48,662 nt of DNA, from IMG/VR virus record IMGVR_UViG_2547132418_000015. One strand, written 5' to 3'. The position numbers and the translations under genes are program-made. Below the pieces are notes generated by a model. That model saw nothing but the letters and a program-made list of their open reading frames with translations, ran no database searches and was not told the origin of the DNA. The DNA comes from a virus (lineage: Duplodnaviria; Heunggongvirae; Uroviricota; Caudoviricetes). Of the stretch, positions 1-45,933 are shown piece by piece; position 1 is the stretch's first letter, and each line of letters begins with the position of its first letter.

Positions 1-692
1 CAAATACGGCATCAGTTACCGTGAGCTGCAGGAGATGCTGGCTGAACGCGGAGTGAATGTCGATCACTCCACGATTTACCGCTGGGTTCAGCGTTATGCG
101 CCTGAAATGGAAAAACGGCTGCGCTGGTACTGGCGTAACCCTTCCGATCTTTGCCCGTGGCACATGGATGAAACCTACGTGAAGGTCAATGGCCGCTGGG
201 CGTATCTGTACCGGGCCGTCGACAGCCGGGGCCGCACTGTCGATTTTTATCTCTCCTCCCGTCGTAACAGCAAAGCTGCATACCGGTTTCTGGGTAAAAT
301 CCTCAACAACGTGAAGAAGTGGCAGATCCCGCGATTCATCAACACGGATAAAGCGCCCGCCTATGGTCGCGCGCTTGCTCTGCTCAAACGCGAAGGCCGG
401 TGCCCGTCTGACGTTGAACACCGACAGATTAAGTACCGGAACAACGTGATTGAATGCGATCATGGCAAACTGAAACGGATAATCGGCGCCACGCTGGGAT
501 TTAAATCCATGAAGACGGCTTACGCCACCATCAAAGGTATTGAGGTGATGCGTGCACTACGCAAAGGCCAGGCCTCAGCATTTTATTATGGTGATCCCCT
601 GGGCGAAATGCGCCTGGTAAGCAGAGTTTTTGAAATGTAAGGCCTTTGAATAAGACAAAAGGCTGCCTCATCGCTAACTTTGCAACAGTGCC
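1..692 (+). mobile_element. IS26 (IS6 family), 3' part ending with the terminal inverted repeat; the 5' part is at the window end
   Basis: IS6-family transposase ORF followed by TTTGCAACAGTGCC at 679-692, the reverse complement of GGCACTGTTGCAAA at 48309-48322; positions 1-231 are identical to 48432-48662. Confidence 0.93.
2..640 (+). CDS. tnpA: IS26 transposase, C-terminal part (N-terminus at 48372-48662)
   Basis: ORF 35..640 is open back to position 2; translation continues the 48372.. ORF (MNPFKGRHFQRDIILWAVRWY...YRAVDS | RGRTVDFYLSSRRN...). Confidence 0.93.
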   Translation, partial: KYGISYRELQEMLAERGVNVDHSTIYRWVQRYAPEMEKRLRWYWRNPSDLCPWHMDETYVKVNGRWAYLYRAVDSRGRTVDFYLSSRRNSKAAYRFLGKILNNVKKWQIPRFINTDKAPAYGRALALLKREGRCPSDVEHRQIKYRNNVIECDHGKLKRIIGATLGFKSMKTAYATIKGIEVMRALRKGQASAFYYGDPLGEMRLVSRVFEM

Positions 693-1044
693 CTTTTTTG
701 TTCAGGCTGGCATCCCAGATATCCAGATTTTCACGTGCTGTACGCTGTGCTGATGCCCCGGCAATTTTAATTTCGCTGAGGTTATTTTTTATCAGCAGCG
801 CGTTATTGCTCATAATGGCTTTAATGGACAGTGCAAGCTGGTTTAATTTTGTTTTATCCGGTTGAATACCGGCTTCTTTCAGCGTGTTTAATAACTCCGC
901 CTGCACAATATTAAACCAGTCCATGCCGGGCCATGTGATAGCATTATTCCCGTCACCTTCTGAAAACCAGCGAACGATAGCACTACGCTGGGCGGATACG
1001 GGCGGCATGACGGTTACGCCGCTGTCGTTATCAATATAAAACAT
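693..1044 (-). pseudogene. Tail fibre gene (Mu S-like), N-terminal 117 codons only, truncated by IS26
   Basis: ORF 586..1044 starts MFYIDNDSGVTVMPPVSAQRSAIVRWFSEGDG and reads into the IS26 terminal repeat after position 693; sits after the gp48-like gene as in Mu. Confidence 0.75.
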
Positions 1045-10828: not shown

Positions 10829-11059
10829 TTACTCCGTTTTTTTCAGCGCAGCGTCGGTATCATCCGCCGTGTTTTCGGTGCTCCCGACTTCAACCACATC
10901 AGTGTTTTCGGTGCTCCCGACTTCAACCACATCACCGGCTACAAGGCGACGTATCCAGAAACTGTTACGGGGCTTTTCTTCTCCCTCAGGCGCCAGTAAT
11001 TCCATCGTGAGCGGGTCACGGATGGTTTTTCCCTCTGCGGGTTTAATTTTCAGCATCAT
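10829..11059 (-). CDS. Small tail-associated protein (Mu gp38-like) with internal 11-aa tandem duplication
   Basis: 76-aa ORF containing DVVEVGSTENT twice. Confidence 0.6.
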   Translation of the reverse strand: MMLKIKPAEGKTIRDPLTMELLAPEGEEKPRNSFWIRRLVAGDVVEVGSTENTDVVEVGSTENTADDTDAALKKTE

Positions 11060-29374: not shown

Positions 29375-31363
29375 TTAAATGGCTTTTTTACGTCTGTTCT
29401 GTTCCAGAATATCCAGCGAATGATTCAGATATTCATCACGCTCAGTTTCGTATTCATCATCACGCTCCTGATTCTTCACCCGTTCCGTATTACCGGAAGG
29501 CCGGAAAATGCCGACAATTCGTGATTCTGGTGCTTCAGGTTCGGCTATCTGCGGCAGCAGCTCTGCCACTTCCAGTGCATCCATTTGTTTCTGTGCCTTA
29601 ATCGCTGCTTTCGTCGCAGATTTCAGTTGTTTCTGGCGGCGGCGATATTCACGGCCTGCCGCAGCATCATTAAACGCAACAGGTGCCAGACATTCCGCTT
29701 CACAGATAAACCGACCGTCCAGGGTGTAACAATAAACCGTGCTGTGTAGCTGCTGCGGATCAAACCTGACCACAACTTTTTTCACGCCGGCATTCATTAA
29801 TGCCATGTTGTAATAAACGTTTTTCGCGCCTTTAAGGGAGCCGCCAACTTTAAGCGTAAACTCGCCTTTGCGTGAAACGTTCACCGCCTCGGCAGGCAGT
29901 AACAGCATCCGTTTTTGTTCTTCGGTTGGCTTACGCACAATCGTTCTGGCGTATTCACGCTCGAAAACATCATCAAACGAGAGTTTGCCCCCGCACATTT
30001 CTGTTTCACGGCCTGTTCTGGCATTGAACATCGCCACACCTTCGGCAAGGTTTTTCAGAAACAGCTCTGCATCAACAGCGCGGTTGCCATAGTTATCAGG
30101 TTTTGCCTGCGGATTTGGCCCCGTATATGCGCCAGCCAGTGCCGGATGCTTATCAACGTATTCCTCAAGCCCACCAACACCGAAAGCACGTTCAACAGGT
30201 TTTGCCTGGCCCCAGCCTTTACCGGCAACAACGCTTGTCCAGTGCATTTTCGCACCCATCAGTAAAAACAATCCCTTTGGATCGTCTTCTTTCACCTTAA
30301 AGCGGTAGCGATTGGGCGCGCCTCCCGTCAGCCATTTATTCGCAGCACCACGGGTGTTATCAATGGTGATGTGAAAATCCTCCGGGATACCGTAGCGAGT
30401 CACAACATCCATGAACGAGAGGCGAATTGAATCAATGTTCTCGCTCACATCGCAGCGCCAGCCCAGAATTTTTCGGGTTTTCACATCCTGCCAGAACCAT
30501 GTTTTCGGGCGGATCACATCACCGTTAAACCAGCGTACAAAGACGTTATGCAGATAACCGTCGCCGTTGATCCACTGCATGGCGTCCAGGTGTTCCACAG
30601 TTCGCTGCTGTGCCGGTATCAGATGCATCAGTGCATGTTCACCTTCACGACAGGCAACAACCATTGCCTCGTCCAGTTGCTGAATCCGGCGAAAGGCCGT
30701 GGCACGGGAGGGAATCCTCCAGCCATGCTCGCGGGCTGCCAGTTCCAGACGCTCATAACATTTGCGGAAGGCGGGTTTTTCCGGTCGCAGATAATCTGCA
30801 ATCAGAAACTGCCAGGCATCCTCGTCAAATTCACTTTTGTGAACATTGCGACGGGATGCACCACGTCCATCAACAAGTGCAGCCGCCCAGTCAGGCTTCG
30901 CAAACTTCTGTACCTGGTAATACTTGTCCCGCAAAGTGGATGCGCTGACCTGGTAATGCCCTGCAACGGTCGCAAAAGCCGTTTTCGTTGAAATCCCCTG
31001 GTTCAGCATTTCGTCTGCAGCCTGAACCGCAGGCAACCATTTTTCAGCAAGTCTGCGCTGGGAATCGCTGGCTTTATCCCATTTGCTCCACAGCACCTCA
31101 CGATCATAATCATGGGCTTCCAGCGTGGGGCGGGCGATTTCAAAACGGCCCAGGCTTGTTTCAATTCTCCCTTGTTGCAACAGAATTTCAGCACGTAATG
31201 CGACAGGGAATGATTTGATATTGAATTCAAATGATACACCTTTAGTCCCTGCAACCTGTCTGAACTCCCAGCCTTCTCTTTGTGCCTTACGTGTAATGTT
31301 AGTGGCTTGCTTTGGTAAACCTGCCAAACCGAGCAACTCTTTTGCTGTATACCATTCTTTCAT
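29375..31363 (-). CDS. A: DDE transposase A
   Basis: 662-aa ORF, Mu A-like over most of its length with a divergent N-terminal DNA-binding region. Confidence 0.93.
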
Positions 31364-31370
31364 AGCGCAC

Positions 31371-31592
31371 CTAGTATCGAGACGGCCAAATATCTTGCGG
31401 TGTCATTCCCAGTGCATCTGCAATGATTTTCTCCGCTTTCGGATATCTCTTATCCAAAGCATTTTTTAATGTTGAAGACGAAAGATGATTAGATCTTCCC
31501 AATTCAGCTAGTGACATATTGCGTTTTCGTAGCTCTGCAACGATGTCAGCTCTGTGCCAATCTTGGCGGTTAGTTCTTTTATTCATATGCAT
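31371..31592 (-). CDS. ner: Ner-like early transcriptional regulator
   Basis: 73-aa ORF ending ...[14 protein letters not shown], first gene of the early operon. Confidence 0.85.
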
Positions 31593-31777
31593 TTCATGTA
31601 ATCCTTTCAGATTCCCCCGCGAGCTACGCTATAAAGTAGCTCACGGCATATCGTGCAATGTAGTGTGGAATCACTTTCAAATCAATAGTGATTTGAAAGG
31701 ATTTGCCATGATTTCATATAACAGCATGATTTTTATATGAATTTATTTTGTCTCTATTGAAATCACTAGGATTTTAA
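31593..31777. promoter_or_regulatory. Divergent early/repressor promoter and operator region
   Basis: Between divergent ner and c; palindromes AGCTACGCTATAAAGTAGCT (31622-31641) and CTTTCAAATCA-ATAG-TGATTTGAAAG (31674-31699). Confidence 0.7.
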
Positions 31778-32302
31778 ATGATGTCTTTTGAAATCAAAGA
31801 ATGGTTTAATGCGAAAGAGCTGGAAGGGATGCCTGGTGTACCAAAGTTGGCGACTAACATTACCAGGAAAGCTGTGGCGGAAGATTGGGTAAAACGTCAG
31901 CGTCACGGTGGGAAAGGTGTCGCTTATGAGTATCACATCAACAGTCTGCCAGAAGAAACACGCAGGGCCATTAAAGGAGCCTCACTTTCTGATAAACCAG
32001 TGCATACATCAATCGCCCATACAGTTGATGAGAGGCTAATTTATGCAATGAGCTTCTTAACACCAGATGAGCAGGCCGCAGCTGTGGAGATCATTCGTGT
32101 GGCAGGGATTAAAGGACTTATGCCTACAATTGTCAGTAAAGATAAGGCATTAGAGGCATTAGGGATTACTGTGGAGCAACAGAAAACCCTGCAAACTCTT
32201 CAGGCATTACCACCGGAAAAAGTGAGAGAGATTTTGTCTCAGTATGAAGGCAAAGAACATAATTTCCCTGTAAGAGAAAACGATGTAAAGAAAGCTGTAT
32301 AA
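31778..32302 (+). CDS. c: Repressor c (Mu/D108 family)
   Basis: 174-aa ORF with AGGA ribosome-binding site; C-terminus ...KVREILSQYEG...KKAV as in Mu-type repressors; divergent from ner. Confidence 0.85.
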   Translation: MMSFEIKEWFNAKELEGMPGVPKLATNITRKAVAEDWVKRQRHGGKGVAYEYHINSLPEETRRAIKGASLSDKPVHTSIAHTVDERLIYAMSFLTPDEQAAAVEIIRVAGIKGLMPTIVSKDKALEALGITVEQQKTLQTLQALPPEKVREILSQYEGKEHNFPVRENDVKKAV

Positions 32303-32641
32303 CAACCAGGTAATAGCTAAGACATAAACTTCACTCCAGGCAATTACATATGTAAGATACCCAAACAGTGATGATTGTTTTTGACACACATCACTTGCTG
32401 AAAGCCTGGTTGTTACCGTTTTTGAAGCATTTTTGAAGCTGTACTTGAAATGATGCGTGAAGTAATTGCTTTTCGTGTCTTTAATGAATCAAAAGCTGTT
32501 TCCAACAATCTTTCGCGTTTCAAGATGTAACGGCTAAAATCTGTCCTACAGGCTTGCAAGCCCCACTAAATCTAATCCCGCCAAATCCCGAATAATCCAA
32601 TGTCCTCCCGGTTTTTTTCGTACTTCAAGTGAATCAATACA
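32303..32641 (-). other. Prophage left end with transposase binding sites; terminus at 32641
   Basis: Minus strand from 32641 reads TGTATTGATTCACTTGAAGTACGAAAAAAACCGGGAGGACATTGG...; repeated TTTTCGT-type motifs. Confidence 0.85.
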
Positions 32642-32654
32642 GTGCTGATTTATG

Positions 32655-37419: not shown

Positions 37420-37498
37420 CTTTGGCGATTTCACCTTGAAATTCTCAGCCTAAACTGCCTAATTACAATAAGTTAGATGTGAAATCGCCATGGCGAAA
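37420..37498. other. P1-type partition site parS
   Basis: ATTTCAC/GTGAAAT heptamers and TCGCCA/TGGCGA hexamers flanking an AT-rich segment, immediately downstream of parB. Confidence 0.7.
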
Positions 37499-38476
37499 TT
37501 ATTGACTCAAATTTCTGTCAAGGACCTCGTTGATAGCCTTGTCCAGTTCATCCTGAATCACTTTTGACATACGGCTAAACTCATAAGTCAGCGTACGCCC
37601 TTTCACACGCTTACGCGCGAACTTGTCCTTTTCTTCAAAAGACCAGAGTGGGGAAACCACTGACTTTTCCTTGGGAGATGGATCTATCAATGCCTGAGAT
37701 GCCTGAGAAATCAGCTTCAGTATACTGGCTTTCTGTTCGTCTTCTGGTCGCTCGCCTTCACTCAAAATTGCATCGAGCTGAGCTGATACAGACTGAATGA
37801 GTTCTTCAGGCGTTAATCCCTTTTCACTGAGTTTTTCATTAACTTCTAAAAGAAGTTTATAGTCACTAAACGATAGCTCCGACTGAACCGGGAACAGAGA
37901 AATCAAGTCTTGCGGTACGGCCGCCGCCTGCAGCGCCCTGGTAACTTTAGCTTGAGATAACCCCTCCAGTTCAGCAATTTCCTTTTGATTAAATCCGGAC
38001 TCTTTAAGAGCGATCAATCTCAGGCCAATCTCCCGAAGATTATGTTCTTTAGCTGTCTGGATATCTTTAGCCAGTTGGCGAGCTTCATCAGCTGATAAAT
38101 GCTCTTCGGTAACCATTACATCAAGGCCTGTACGGACAAAAATTGCTGAGGCTCGCCGTCTTGAACCATCCAGTATCTCAATCCTTTCACTTTGCTTAAT
38201 ACCAATACAGGGAAAGAACTGCTGAAACTTAATCGTCTGGATAATGGATTTCAGGGATTCCCTGGTCAGTGCAAGTTGATCTCTTCCGTTGTTTTCCTGG
38301 TTTACGAAGGTCTTACTTTCAACTTCAGATGCAGGCACCCGAACAAACCTGAACGTTACCTTCCTGCCGGTTTTTAAGGTAAATACCTGGCTTCTACCGG
38401 TGTCCGTCATTTCCGCAATTGACGCCTGGGTATTTAACTGTCTGCCGATGGTTTTTCTTTTCTCATTCGACATCAC
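37499..38476 (-). CDS. parB: Partition protein ParB (P1 type)
   Basis: 325-aa ORF with ...IEILDGSRRRASAI... and GLSQAKVTRALQAA motifs. Confidence 0.9.
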   Translation of the reverse strand: MMSNEKRKTIGRQLNTQASIAEMTDTGRSQVFTLKTGRKVTFRFVRVPASEVESKTFVNQENNGRDQLALTRESLKSIIQTIKFQQFFPCIGIKQSERIEILDGSRRRASAIFVRTGLDVMVTEEHLSADEARQLAKDIQTAKEHNLREIGLRLIALKESGFNQKEIAELEGLSQAKVTRALQAAAVPQDLISLFPVQSELSFSDYKLLLEVNEKLSEKGLTPEELIQSVSAQLDAILSEGERPEDEQKASILKLISQASQALIDPSPKEKSVVSPLWSFEEKDKFARKRVKGRTLTYEFSRMSKVIQDELDKAINEVLDRNLSQ

Positions 38477-39678
38477 ATACCTCCGTTAGTACGAATGAAC
38501 TCGATGCGATCAAAGACTGCCTTCGCAAAGTCTTCCGCTGCTGATTTTGCGCTTTTTAGTGCCTCTGTACTTCCATCATAGGTTGCTGGATTTGCTGAAA
38601 TAACTGTGTCAAAAGTCTCCCCACAACGTTCGAAACCATCCAGTCTTGGCAGAACCATGTCTAGCATATCGGCACCGAAAACCTCTTTGGCCTGACTATG
38701 GCAAATTTTGTGATCAGACTTGTTCAGGATCTTGGACATGAAGCCGACATTACCGATGAGATTGCAGGTGTGCCCATCCATTTCGATGGAATCTATGAGG
38801 GCAGGGAGGCTGGCCACAAACTTCAGGGAAGAATGAAAATCAACCGTCGCCGGTGGAAGAGGGGTCAACATCAGGTCTGCCGCCCCAATGCAGTTTTTCA
38901 GGAACGCATCAAGGTGAGGACCACTATCAAGGAAAATAAAGTCGTAGTCATGCTGGAGCTTGTCGATAATGTTCTCTTTAAGCACCGCATGAATATTTTT
39001 CCCTGGCAGATGTTCTTCACACAATCCCTTCCAGCCTTCAGCAAGGAATGCATCGTCAATGGAAGCGGGGATTACATCAACACCAGGGATAATAGACGGT
39101 ACTATAAAATCGGAAAGTAATTCTTCACGAGACACGTTCTGGAGCATGGCCTGAGCAGCCGTATTTTCAACCAAGCCCACTGAATTCTCATGGCTCAGGA
39201 ACATTGTCAGAGATGCCTGCGGATCGAAATCGATGGCCAGAATACGCAGGTCTTCGAACAGAAGCTGAGGATGAGCTCGAAAAGCATGTGATAATGAAGC
39301 GGTAGAAACTGTCTTGGAACCACCACCTTTAAGATTACATACAAAAATCGTAAAGGCTTTATCGAAGCGATCCCTGTACTTCGGTACTTTACGATGGTTA
39401 TACAGATCGATGACATTCTGAATCGTCATCGCGTATTTCATCGTATTACCAGAAGGTTTCTTTTTAAAAATGTAGCCACCGGCTTCCATTTCGGACACAG
39501 CATACTCAACACTGCCTTTACTGAGCTTAGGCAGCTTATACAGAGCGGCTTTGCTGTATTCCTGATAGAACTCGGTAAGCTTCAATTCCTCTTTTTGCTG
39601 TCGGATACTTTCGCTCAAAGATGTCAGAAGCTTACCTGCACGTGTAGCGACTTTCCGTAACTGCTCAATATTGTCCAT
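38473..39678 (-). CDS. parA: Partition ATPase ParA (type Ia, P1 type)
   Basis: 401-aa ORF with deviant Walker A CNLKGGGSKT and an N-terminal DNA-binding extension. Confidence 0.9.
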   Translation of the reverse strand: MDNIEQLRKVATRAGKLLTSLSESIRQQKEELKLTEFYQEYSKAALYKLPKLSKGSVEYAVSEMEAGGYIFKKKPSGNTMKYAMTIQNVIDLYNHRKVPKYRDRFDKAFTIFVCNLKGGGSKTVSTASLSHAFRAHPQLLFEDLRILAIDFDPQASLTMFLSHENSVGLVENTAAQAMLQNVSREELLSDFIVPSIIPGVDVIPASIDDAFLAEGWKGLCEEHLPGKNIHAVLKENIIDKLQHDYDFIFLDSGPHLDAFLKNCIGAADLMLTPLPPATVDFHSSLKFVASLPALIDSIEMDGHTCNLIGNVGFMSKILNKSDHKICHSQAKEVFGADMLDMVLPRLDGFERCGETFDTVISANPATYDGSTEALKSAKSAAEDFAKAVFDRIEFIRTNGGM

Positions 39679-39730: not shown

Positions 39731-40070
39731 AGAAAAAAAATCATATTGTTTTGATTTCGCTCTCAACAGAAGGGGGATGAAGCTCGACGGGCGTGCTACT
39801 AAATCACACTGCAGCAACACGCAGACGCACTTTTGACCATCAACAGCAACTCATACAAAAGGGCTTTGAGAAAGGTATTCAACTTGCAAGACAGGAGAGT
39901 CATTCAGAAGGATTCTGATTTTAGTTACGACCAGTGCAATGCTGAGCCTTATGTATCAGCGCTCGCCGCAGCCATGTAACCGAGCGTAGCGAGCGAACTG
40001 GCGAGGAAGCGAAGAGGAACCGTTCCGGCAGATAGCTCTTACGCTCAGCACAAGAAGAGTTTTCCATCCT

Positions 40071-40565
40071 CTGTGGGAAACAGGTCAACTTTAATGGACG
40101 CTCCGGACTATGGGAAACAGGTCAACTTCGCGGACGGCCCGGACTATGGGAAACAGGTCAACTTCACGGGCGGCCGGGAGTGTGGGGAACAGGTCAACTT
40201 CGCGGACGGCCCGGACTATGGGAAACAGGTCAACTTCACGGGCGGCCGGGAGTGTGGGGAACAGGTCAACTTCGCGGACGGCCCGGATTATGGGAAACAG
40301 GTCAACTTCGCGGGCGGCCGGGACTGTGGGAAACAGGTCAACTTTGCAGACGGCCCGGACTGTGGGAAACAGGTCAACTTCGCGGGCGGCCGGGAGTGTG
40401 GGGAACAGGTCAACTTCGCGGACGGCCCGGACTAAGGGAAACAGGTCAGCTTCTCGGACGGCCCGGACTATGGGAAACAGGTCAACTTCTCGGACGGTCG
40501 GGAGTGTGGGAAACAGGTCAAGTTAGGCAAGCACTATGGGAAACACAGCAAGTTCAGTATCCCCC
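40071..40565. repeat. Array of 13 direct 36-bp iterons plus one degenerate unit, downstream of rep
   Basis: Unit TGGGAAACAGGTCAACTTCGCGGACGGCCCGGACTA repeated at 36-37-bp period. Confidence 0.9.
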
Positions 40566-40611
40566 CATATGTCAGCAACAAACTAAGGGGGGAGGAAATA
40601 AAAATTACAGA

Positions 40612-41334
40612 CTATTGTTTTTTATCAAGAAAATTAAACAGCAAGCGACCATCTTCTTCAGTGGTATATGTTACCTTTAATGGCGTCTTCTCATTAATTT
40701 TCTTCAGAGCAGGTTCCAGGAAGGTACGCTTCATTTCAGCAATATTGTTTTTCTGCGAGGCAGGGAGCATAAACCTTTCACATAACCAGTCATGTGTGGT
40801 GATCCAGACACCAGTGCTCCGGAACTGACACAGGCTTTCATAAAGCCGGATGACACGAACACTATTAAGCTGGCCACAGTCATAGAGAGAATAGGTAGTG
40901 AACTGGGAGGTTAAGCCGACCAGGAATGGCATGACCTTGTAGTTAAATTCAATCTGCCAGGAACCCCGGCCTCGCTTCATTCCTGCTTCAGCCAGCCACG
41001 GACGTTTAACTTCTTCAAACTCACCTTCTTTTGGATAAAAGGTAACCGTTGATTCGCCCAGAGCATTTACCCCAGCCTTCACATCACGACTGGCGACAGA
41101 CGTAGCGACATTGAAGTATTTGACGTAATCGGAAACGCTGATTTTGAAGAGCGGCAATACGTCAGAGTCATCTTCCTGGCTGTCATTAAAATAGGCCTGC
41201 ATGAGGCATAACCACAGCACACGTTTTGCCTGAAGAGGCAGGTAATATGCAGCTTCGGTCAATTCGTTAGATTGCTTTATACTGGCGCGTTTTTTAAACG
41301 TTTTAGTAGCTGGCAAGAGTGCTTGAGTATCCAT
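40612..41334 (-). CDS. rep: Rep_3/RepE-family replication initiator
   Basis: ORF 40612..41493; start placed at ATG 41334 (MDTQALLPATKTFKKRASIKQSNELTEAAYYL...) because upstream codons overlap origin iterons; RLYESLCQFR motif. Confidence 0.82.
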   Translation of the reverse strand: MDTQALLPATKTFKKRASIKQSNELTEAAYYLPLQAKRVLWLCLMQAYFNDSQEDDSDVLPLFKISVSDYVKYFNVATSVASRDVKAGVNALGESTVTFYPKEGEFEEVKRPWLAEAGMKRGRGSWQIEFNYKVMPFLVGLTSQFTTYSLYDCGQLNSVRVIRLYESLCQFRSTGVWITTHDWLCERFMLPASQKNNIAEMKRTFLEPALKKINEKTPLKVTYTTEEDGRLLFNFLDKKQ

Positions 41335-41399
41335 TTCAATGCCTATGGGTAAATTTTTACCCACCCATAATGACAGTGAAAACAGAAATTGCAAGCTAT

Positions 41400-41690
41400 C
41401 GCGATACTTATCCACCGGAAAAATCTGCACTTTATCCACAAGTGGATAATTGAGAACTGAACTTGACCTCTTTCCCATAGCTTGTTGATGCATATCCCAT
41501 AGCTTGTTGACACAAAACCCACTGATACGTGATTAATTTCCCATATTATGTTTACCAGTTGCCCATACAGGCCCCCTCTCAGGCCGCACTGTACGCGGCT
41601 TTCAGGCTCCCTAAAAGATGTAAAATAAAGAAAAAGAATAAAAAAGTACTTTATAAAAATATGCCCGTGGATAAGTGGATAACCCCGAGG
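41400..41690. other. Vegetative replication origin: DnaA boxes, four spaced iteron cores, AT-rich segment
   Basis: TTATCCACAAGTGGATAA (41433-41450), GTGGATAAGTGGATAA (41666-41681), CCCATA cores at about 41475, 41497, 41541, 41563, AT-rich 41600-41660. Confidence 0.7.
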
Positions 41691-42025
41691 GGAGGTGATT
41701 TTTCAGGCATTGAGCGTAAGCAGAATTTATAAGTTTTGTTCCCTGGTGCTTCCTCGCTCACTCGGGGCTTCGCCCTGTCGCTCGACTGCGGCGAGCACTG
41801 CTGGCTCGATCATATCCGTGGCCGGAAGATACTACTCCTCCCCCGAGTCGCTCTCCAGAGCCGGCTACAGCGAGACAACCCGCACGAAGATTTCTATCGT
41901 CCCTGCAGACATATTCGAATCGTTTTTATTAACCCTGGCTTCCGTCGTGACAGAACACTACGTCCTGTAAAAGGGGGACTAAGGCCCCTGAATCACACAC
42001 CTGAATAATGCGGAGTTTTACGATA

Positions 42026-42555: not shown

Positions 42556-43332
42556 TTAAATATTCCCTTTCAGCATGGCTACCGCATCCGCTTCGGGCAT
42601 CTGAAACTGAACTCGATGCCGCGCAGCAACATCAAGTGCGAACACCTTCGTATAGACTTCCGTCGAGCTAATCGATTTGTGGCCCATCAGGCTCTGCAAA
42701 ACCTTCAGTGGTATGCCGGCATACAGCATATGCATCGCGTAGGAGTGGCGGAACGTATGCGGGGTGACCGGCACCGAGAATGTCCCCCCGTCGACGGCGG
42801 CCGCTTCAACCGCTTCGCCAATCCAGGTCCGTACTGTCCGGTCGGTGATGTCCCAGATGCGGGCTTTCTCTGTTCTGCCGGTACGCTTGTTGCGTCTTTC
42901 CAGCGGAATTTTCAGGGTGGCCACCATCATCTGCAGCTGGCTGACGTAGTGGTGATCGGAAAGCGGAACCAGACGATGAGCCTGGCTACCGGCGGGAGCT
43001 CGGCCGGCTGTCCTGGCCGCTTTTTCGGTGCGCTGCTTAAGCGTGGCCAGCTGCACGAACGGATACGGTGGCACCAGCGAAAAATCCCCCCGGGTCAGCG
43101 CCAGCGCCTCGTTGATACGTGCGCCGGTGTTCCAGAGGGTTGCCAGCAGCATCTTGCGGTGCAAATCGGGCACATAATGGAGCAGGGCGCTGACTTCCGG
43201 TGCCAGCAGGTATTTCGGTAGTTCATCTTGAACGAGCGCCATCTGGCGCAGGGCCAGCGCGGCGGGATAGTCAATGGCCACCGGCATTTGCGCCGGCTGC
43301 TGCGGGTGAGAATATGATAAGAGGCCGCTCAT
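42556..43332 (-). CDS. Tyrosine site-specific recombinase, likely plasmid multimer resolvase
   Basis: 258-aa ORF with ...HTFRHSYAMHMLYAGIPLKVLQSLMGHKSISSTEVYTKV... (R-H-R-Y active-site pattern). Confidence 0.85.
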   Translation of the reverse strand: MSGLLSYSHPQQPAQMPVAIDYPAALALRQMALVQDELPKYLLAPEVSALLHYVPDLHRKMLLATLWNTGARINEALALTRGDFSLVPPYPFVQLATLKQRTEKAARTAGRAPAGSQAHRLVPLSDHHYVSQLQMMVATLKIPLERRNKRTGRTEKARIWDITDRTVRTWIGEAVEAAAVDGGTFSVPVTPHTFRHSYAMHMLYAGIPLKVLQSLMGHKSISSTEVYTKVFALDVAARHRVQFQMPEADAVAMLKGNI

Positions 43333-45834: not shown

Positions 45835-45914
45835 TGGAGTGACCCCGAGCCCGTAGACAAATCTGCCCTATAGTTGGAGTGACCCCGAGCCCGTAGACAA
45901 ATCTGCCCTATAGT
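45835..45914 (+). repeat. Perfect 40-bp tandem duplication between the IS end and orfA
   Basis: TGGAGTGACCCCGAGCCCGTAGACAAATCTGCCCTATAGT at 45835-45874 and again at 45875-45914. Confidence 0.95.
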
Positions 45915-45933
45915 TTGAGCATAGGAGGAGTCT

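Follow-up and report, generated by a model that had tools for sequence, protein, structure and literature searches.

The window analysed here, a 48,662-nt stretch of viral-record DNA, carries a tandem array of 13 units of 36 bp downstream of a Rep_3 family replication gene. The array is already described and is ordinary for IncR plasmids. Judged by its homology to characterized replicons and by its co-variation with the origin, it is probably a Rep-binding cluster for negative control and incompatibility, acting through handcuffing and titration.

Structure of the array

Tandem Repeats Finder (TRF) reports the array at 40074-40521, with a period of 36, 12.4 copies, 85% matches, no indels and a score of 628, while an in-register listing sets the unit starts at 40072, 40108 and onwards to 40504. 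Together with a motif search, these define 13 tandem units at 40072-40524 on the plus strand, antisense to rep, the 13th of which retains only its iteron part. A 14th, degenerate iteron (CTATGGGAAACACAGCAAGTTCAGT; 40534-40558, plus strand) lies nearest the rep stop, at a 30-bp offset and out of the 36-bp register, and is 84% complementary to the origin iteron region at 41456-41480 (inverted-repeat pair I4). The original prediction of 13 near-identical units plus a degenerate one was thus confirmed. Its placement of the array downstream of rep also holds, since rep is a minus-strand reading frame with its stop at 40612-40614; the units begin 54 bp past this stop.

Each unit consists of a 22-nt iteron (CTATGGGAAACAGGTCAACTTC), made of a TATGGGAAA half and a CAGGTCAAC half, and a 14-nt G+C-rich spacer. 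There are two types of spacer, GCGGACGGCCCGGA and ACGGGCGGCCGGGA, whose alternation produces a 72-bp higher-order period in part of the array. The spacers are 84% G+C, versus 48% for the array iteron. As a whole the array is 61% GC and forms a local G+C maximum (55-65% GC in 60-nt windows).

When CTATGGGAAACAGGTCAACTTC was searched with at most three mismatches, 12 array units were recovered on the plus strand along with a single site upstream of rep, at 41459-41480 on the minus strand; there was no further match in the 48.6 kb, where 0.00 were expected from 100 shuffles. Matches to the core TRTGGGRWW number 13 within the array, all of them on the plus strand, and three upstream of rep, all on the minus strand (41471, 41493 and 41537). 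Only 6 of the 14 downstream sites carry the 9-mer TATGGGAAA exactly; the rest read TGTGGGAAA, TGTGGGGAA or TAAGGGAAA. The array iteron and the rep-proximal origin iteron are identical at 20 of 22 positions and inverted relative to one another. The array cores therefore do lie opposite to the four origin cores, as had been claimed, with all array sites on the plus strand and all origin sites on the minus strand.

A promoter and terminator scan found nothing in or beside the array that exceeded the shuffled expectation. Rfam gave a single match, a chance snoRNA within rep (E=0.42), which at 20 bits falls below its gathering score of 55. A structured RNA or cruciform was considered and rejected, as the array matches no Rfam family and a four-unit fold is no better than shuffles (z = -1.39). 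Many draft contigs in our comparative set (among L003, L006, L023 and L025-L029) end within the array or at its start, and this tandem repeat is a frequent break point of short-read assemblies.

The rep gene and origin

The rep gene (the IncR 'repB'; 40612-41334, minus strand) encodes a Rep_3 family initiator. Its product matches Pfam Rep3_N (1e-31) and Rep3_C (1.7e-13), both above cut-off, as well as the F RepE structure 1rep (E=8.9e-34). The longest rep open reading frame is 293 aa, reaches 41493 and starts inside the origin iterons. The usual RefSeq call is 288 aa, with a start inside the rep-proximal origin iteron (41459-41480), and one relative is annotated at 240 aa. The 240-aa form from the ATG at 41334 is probably the correct one, given its homology to the 239-aa IncN RepA, the annotation in that relative, and an operator-like repeat just upstream.

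This inverted repeat, TATGGGT(N12)ACCCATA, spans 41344-41369, uses the conserved iteron half and lies 10-35 bp upstream of the rep ATG. Following the F RepE paradigm, we regard it as a putative Rep-dimer operator for autorepression. An inverted repeat, CTTTGTGG...CCACAAAG, is similarly placed in front of repA in the IncN plasmid R46.

Four origin iterons with a 22-bp period occupy 41459-41546 on the minus strand, in the sense orientation relative to rep. The rep-proximal copy reads CTATGGGAAAGAGGTCAAGTTC; the fourth is weaker (CAGTGGGTT) and sits in register at ~41515-41523. The origin-opening side (41603-41682, minus strand) combines an AT-rich stretch of ~25% GC, centred around 41620-41680, with two tandem DnaA boxes, TTATCCACT at 41674-41682 and TTATCCACG at 41666-41674. 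Three further DnaA-box matches (41408-41449) fall between the origin iterons and rep. All five DnaA boxes are thus upstream of rep, and no DnaA box or AT-rich element was found at or beside the array.

The array belongs to the IncR family

The 2.5-kb rep region is at least 80% covered in 1343 PLSDB plasmids, mostly from Klebsiella and E. coli. The best matches reach 98.5-98.8% identity over 2521 bp, and the matching PLSDB records that we sampled are typed IncR by MOB-suite. From 32642 to its end the window matches IncR plasmids at 99%, and by this similarity it carries an IncR plasmid backbone. In backbones of the pK245, pHN84KPC, pST1023 and pR50-74 type the element is the same and its unit also measures 36 bp. 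IncR backbones and the window agree in their gene order, which runs resD - ori - rep - array - parA - parB - umuCD. Relative to IncR references, the window differs only in unit number (13 plus one degenerate) and in a few substitutions. The replicon was reportedly first described by da Silva-Tatley and Steyn in 1993, as the beta replicon of pGSH500/pGSH5000.

The array itself is also known, since IncR papers annotate 36-bp iterons of repB with copy counts of 10.4, 10.5, 15.5, 16.5 and 22.5 (PMC9412624, PMC7707992). The terms 'IncR repeat region' and 'IncR control region' are used in PMC4048246. The IncR literature that we searched contains no experiment probing the array directly for binding, for the effect of its deletion or for incompatibility, and the repeats are named 'iterons' by analogy.

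With TRF, run among others on eight fetched records, we counted 6.4-20.5 units in 15 IncR-type loci sharing the 36-bp unit, namely the window and 14 others. A distribution from similarity ranking was set aside, as most of its alignments begin inside the array and render its counts uninformative. With a family range of 6.4-20.5 measured and 10.4-22.5 published, 13 units is mid-range. The original description of the array as unusually long is correct relative to F and P1 only; within IncR and IncN, where arrays run from 6 to ~31 units, it does not stand.

Some arrays are found away from a rep gene. At 2213-2950 of a K. variicola IncFIB plasmid (L041, NZ_CP129757.1), 20.5 units of the IncR-type 36-bp repeat lie beside IS1 as an orphan array, with neither rep nor origin iterons nearby. 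Orphan IncN arrays of 24-31 units have been reported in IncR and F33 plasmids (PMC4048246, PMC6052338, PMC9412624). In our small sample, rep-linked arrays have 6.4-18.6 units and orphan arrays tend to fall at the long end. In multi-replicon plasmids, IncR arrays can come to lie 34.5 kb from rep (PMC4048246), so tight cis linkage is not obligatory, at least with another replicon present. One IncR-bearing plasmid, typed IncFIA + IncR, has a coverage of ~2 per chromosome (PMC4048246).

Comparison with F, P1 and FIB replicons

The array is flanked on either side by F-homologous DNA. By blastn, resD (window 42568-43286) is 80% identical to F, 41631-42028 matches the left portion of F ori2, DnaA boxes included, at 72%, and the stretch that separates the array from the parA promoter (39958-40080) matches the F incC-sopA segment at 87% over 123 bp. 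The same search found no nucleotide similarity to F in the iterons, rep or array. These flanks make the position of the array equivalent to that of incC, and by synteny it occupies the F incC slot. The F RepFIA replicon also shares with the window its Rep fold family, four sense iterons upstream of rep and antisense iterons downstream. The suggested comparison with RepFIA incC shows agreement in both slot and sense/antisense pattern. In F, however, incC consists of five irregularly spaced 19-bp iterons with unrelated DNA between them, whereas the window array is a periodic tandem, and F partitions by SopABC rather than by a P1-type ParAB/parS system. The iteron-rep-array module, which takes the place of the ori2 iterons, repE and incC of F, resembles the product of a cassette exchange involving one F-like and one IncN-like replicon. 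It is flanked by the two arms of a 34-nt inverted repeat (39957-39990 / 41767-41800).

In P1, the order oriR(incC) - repA - incA - parA - parB - parS is the module order of the window. P1 incA controls copy number by iterons outside the origin, classically nine in count. Our scan with at most five mismatches found five 19-bp iterons there, in both orientations and with 31-92 bp spacing. The annotation of K02380 likewise describes incA as a second iteron cluster after repA, outside the origin, with a role in copy-number control; P1 origin control also uses Dam sites (K02380). Unlike the F and P1 clusters, that of the window is perfectly periodic and amplified, with a readily changing unit number.

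RepFIB replicons (P307, F and pO157) have, by published description, two iteron sets flanking rep, of which E-K are downstream and associated with control; their 21-bp repeats form no long periodic array. The downstream FIB iterons are by themselves enough to displace a resident plasmid of that type, and for FIA the accepted model of control is that oriV and incC handcuff (PMC11983097).

IncN and the wider Rep clade

The closest relative that has been studied is the IncN replicon (pCU1/R46), whose 37-bp repeats are named 'iteron I'; the R46 RepA (239 aa) is 57% identical to the window Rep over its full length. R46 has 4.8 sense iterons with a 22-bp period upstream of repA and, starting ~50 bp past the rep stop as in the window, 6.5 downstream units of 37 bp that each pair an antisense iteron with a G+C-rich spacer. 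The IncN unit is 37 bp where the IncR unit is 36 bp, and the variable halves of the iterons differ (CCGCCCACCTT versus CAGGTCAACTT). The R46 array consensus agrees with the window origin iterons at 5 of 13 positions and with its own at 11 of 13. By these comparisons the IncN and IncR arrays are homologous but not of the same group, as different variable halves lead us to expect different specificity and a different incompatibility group. Unlike the window array, that of R46 has no neighbouring parAB. Two papers (PMC9412624, PMC6052338), both with reference to Papp & Iyer 1995 and Krishnan & Iyer 1990, present the IncN 37-bp repeats as the site of RepA binding and give them a part in replication and copy-number control. 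PMC6052338 also cites Krishnan & Iyer 1990 for IncN results of the kind expected here, where deletion would raise copy number and the cloned cluster would exert incompatibility. Unit number also varies in IncN, at 24-31 in other plasmids against 6.5 in R46 (PMC9412624, PMC6052338, PMC4048246).

We then compared 30 loci with Rep proteins 55-100% identical to that of the window, scanning one genome per species. IncR-like replicons in this set have 36-bp arrays of 10.5-15.6 units, and a Pantoea contig with an 80% identical Rep has a 37-bp array of 28.6 units. Two relatives at 83-84% carry 7-9 loosely spaced downstream iterons, clades at 61-72% carry 0-3, a 57-60% clade has 61-bp arrays of up to ~19 units, and IncN has 37-bp arrays. 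The 61-bp unit comprises an antisense iteron and a 39-nt spacer of ~90% G+C with the inverted repeat CCGGGCGCC...GGCGCCCGG. In L022-L025 (Pantoea, Mixta, Erwinia and Chimaeribacter), a sister clade of IncN, these 61-bp units are located ~70-1500 bp past rep. Relatives with 0-3 downstream iterons suggest that these sites are accessory and regulatory rather than essential, since an essential part of the origin could not be missing.

Across all lineages in the set, downstream iterons are antisense and upstream iterons sense. One half of the iteron (TATGGGAA) is constant throughout the Rep clade, and the other is lineage-specific. The variable half of an array matches its own or a sister origin iteron at 11-13 of 13 positions, compared with 4-9 of 13 for distant lineages. 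That array and origin vary together is the best argument from sequence for a single protein, Rep, as the reader of both sets of sites.

The spacer, by contrast with the iteron, diverges quickly. Consensus units compared by hand between the window and L009 are identical at 6 of 14 spacer positions versus 19 of 22 iteron positions, and across clades the spacer is 14, 15 or 39 nt long, giving units of 36, 37 or 61 bp. A specific second protein that binds the G+C-rich spacer is unlikely in view of this fast divergence, the varying length, and the lack of shared helical phasing among the three unit lengths. Without such common phasing, no particular handcuffing geometry can be argued either. Resistance to melting is a plausible reason for the G+C content of the spacer.

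Model of array function

Homology and comparative evidence support the original proposal of an incompatibility-type, copy-control array, and point to a Rep-binding element like incC and incA. From homology with the replicons described above we infer that RepB binds the array, that array and origin pair, and that copy number is affected. RepB monomers would bind the 22-nt iteron in each unit as they would at the four origin iterons. The ~14 additional sites are separate from the origin and should not fire, because they adjoin neither DnaA boxes nor an AT-rich region. They could instead soak up initiator (titration), while Rep-Rep contacts would pair the array with the origin iterons of the same or a sister plasmid (handcuffing). 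With rising copy number, initiation would be blocked and the plasmid would stay at low copy. Array sites supplied in trans would be expected to displace another IncR plasmid, the basis of incompatibility. Because the units are in perfect tandem, their number can change easily, presumably by unequal recombination or slippage, and such shifts probably retune the set point.

Resistance genes in Klebsiella and other Enterobacteriaceae are commonly carried on IncR backbones, and the array is the likely determinant of the copy number and incompatibility of these backbones. This bears on the behaviour of multi-replicon cointegrates and on plasmid-curing designs, given that FIB plasmids are displaced by cloned downstream iterons (PMC11983097).

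A bolder extension, which we hold to be doubtful, treats the periodic arrays of the IncR/IncN Rep clade as more than a longer incC, and sees in them a rapidly evolving rheostat and weapon. Here, unequal recombination over a range of 6 to ~31 units would reset copy number, and the G+C-rich spacer would have been selected to stop Rep-loaded DNA from melting or firing. Orphan arrays left on other plasmids after loss of rep, such as the 20.5-unit array of NZ_CP129757.1 and the 24-31-unit IncN arrays, might then act as exclusion determinants against IncR or IncN plasmids.

Alternative explanations

The best-surviving rival holds that the array is a pure Rep sink without origin pairing, such that copy number follows the ratio of Rep to total iterons. 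The sequence evidence serves this reading as well as it serves handcuffing, since sequence cannot separate the two. The many and variable sites (6.4-20.5 units) are sponge-like, and units of 36, 37 and 61 bp share no phasing of the sort on which a defined paired structure might depend. However, the operator-like repeat at 41344-41369 leads us to predict that Rep regulates its own synthesis. Such feedback buffers titration, and this is the argument classically made in favour of handcuffing in P1 and F. In every lineage examined the downstream iterons are inverted with respect to the origin, which a pure sink would not require. Pairing is also accepted for FIA and favoured by FIB data (PMC11983097). 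On balance we consider an exclusive sink unlikely, and prefer handcuffing together with titration.

It is considerably less probable that the array serves, wholly or in part, as a second origin dependent on Rep, or as a barrier to replication forks formed by bound Rep. The IncN plasmid pCU1 is reported to have three clustered origins (oriB, oriS and oriV), with oriS dependent on RepA (Zoueva et al. 2003, a title cited in PMC7826253), and a fork could be hindered by numerous sites that bind Rep and all face the same way. The array nevertheless has no origin hallmarks to support either function, as it lacks a DnaA box or AT-rich unwinding element and has spacers of 84% GC. Related replicons with 0-3 downstream iterons, and orphan arrays without rep (L041; PMC4048246), also speak against a second origin.

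The position of the array between rep and parA, ~390 bp upstream of the parA start, raises the question of a sopC-like centromere bound by ParB; F sopC, too, consists of tandem units, each of 43 bp. The partition genes are parA (38473-39678, minus strand; type Ia with an N-terminal HTH, Pfam HTH_54 + AAA_31) and parB (37499-38476, minus strand; P1 type, PF08775), and the operon is transcribed away from the array. ParB is 54% identical to P1 ParB and matches its structure 1zx4 (E=1.5e-61). A P1-type parS directly follows parB at 37421-37498 (minus strand), where it aligns with P1 parS through the shared TTTCGCCAT..ATTTCAC and AATTTCAAGGTGAAATCGCCA. This parS lies within the ~80 bp from the parB stop to the end of the umuC-like gene. 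Its A boxes (ATTTCAC, ATTTCAA) and B boxes (TCGCCA) all cluster at 37421-37498, and none occurs in 40001-40600. With parS present there, the array is not needed as the ParAB centromere. Moreover, the homologous R46 array has no adjoining parAB, and the variable half of the repeat tracks the origin iteron. We therefore rejected the centromere reading as highly improbable, on the P1-type parS and the absence of A and B boxes from the array.

Least credible of all, with next to nothing to recommend it, is a repetitive protein encoded by the array: although three plus-strand frames are open across it (120, 138 and 166 aa) and PGAP calls a CDS there in many plasmids (RefSeq WP_000339857.1, 89 aa; WP_011977817.1, 203 aa), these open frames follow from a 36-bp G+C-rich unit without stop codons, their translations match no Pfam family at cut-off, the 37- and 61-bp units of relatives shift frame from unit to unit, and unit number varies from 6 to 20 among near-identical plasmids, for which reasons it was rejected. 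The annotated 'hypothetical proteins' are almost certainly artefacts of this stop-free repeat, spurious frames called by annotation pipelines. Such frames lie at 40073-40680 of the window (plus strand), 6415-6684 of L001 and 1343-1954 of L037.

Other features of the window

Adjacent to the IncR backbone, 692-32643 of the window is a ~32-kb Mu-like prophage in reverse orientation, with 95.8-98.4% identity to phage Mu. It meets the backbone at ~32643 with its left end (TGTATTGATTCACTTGAAGTACG...), while IS26 at window 1-712 truncates it on the right, so that the C-terminal part of S, U, gin, mom and attR are missing. No megablast match was obtained for the c/ner region (31175-32643). Most of the Mu-like segment is found in only one PLSDB record (CP088505.1, 93%). 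Within it, a perfect 33-bp tandem duplication at 10869-10934 coincides with the break between two Mu blast segments (Mu 21611/21643, in the gp38 DUF2635 gene). A second short repeat lies in the IncR backbone beyond resD, where a 40-bp unit (TGGAGTGACCCCGAGCCCGTAGACAAATCTGCCCTATAGT) is present in 2.1 copies at 97% identity (45835-45919).
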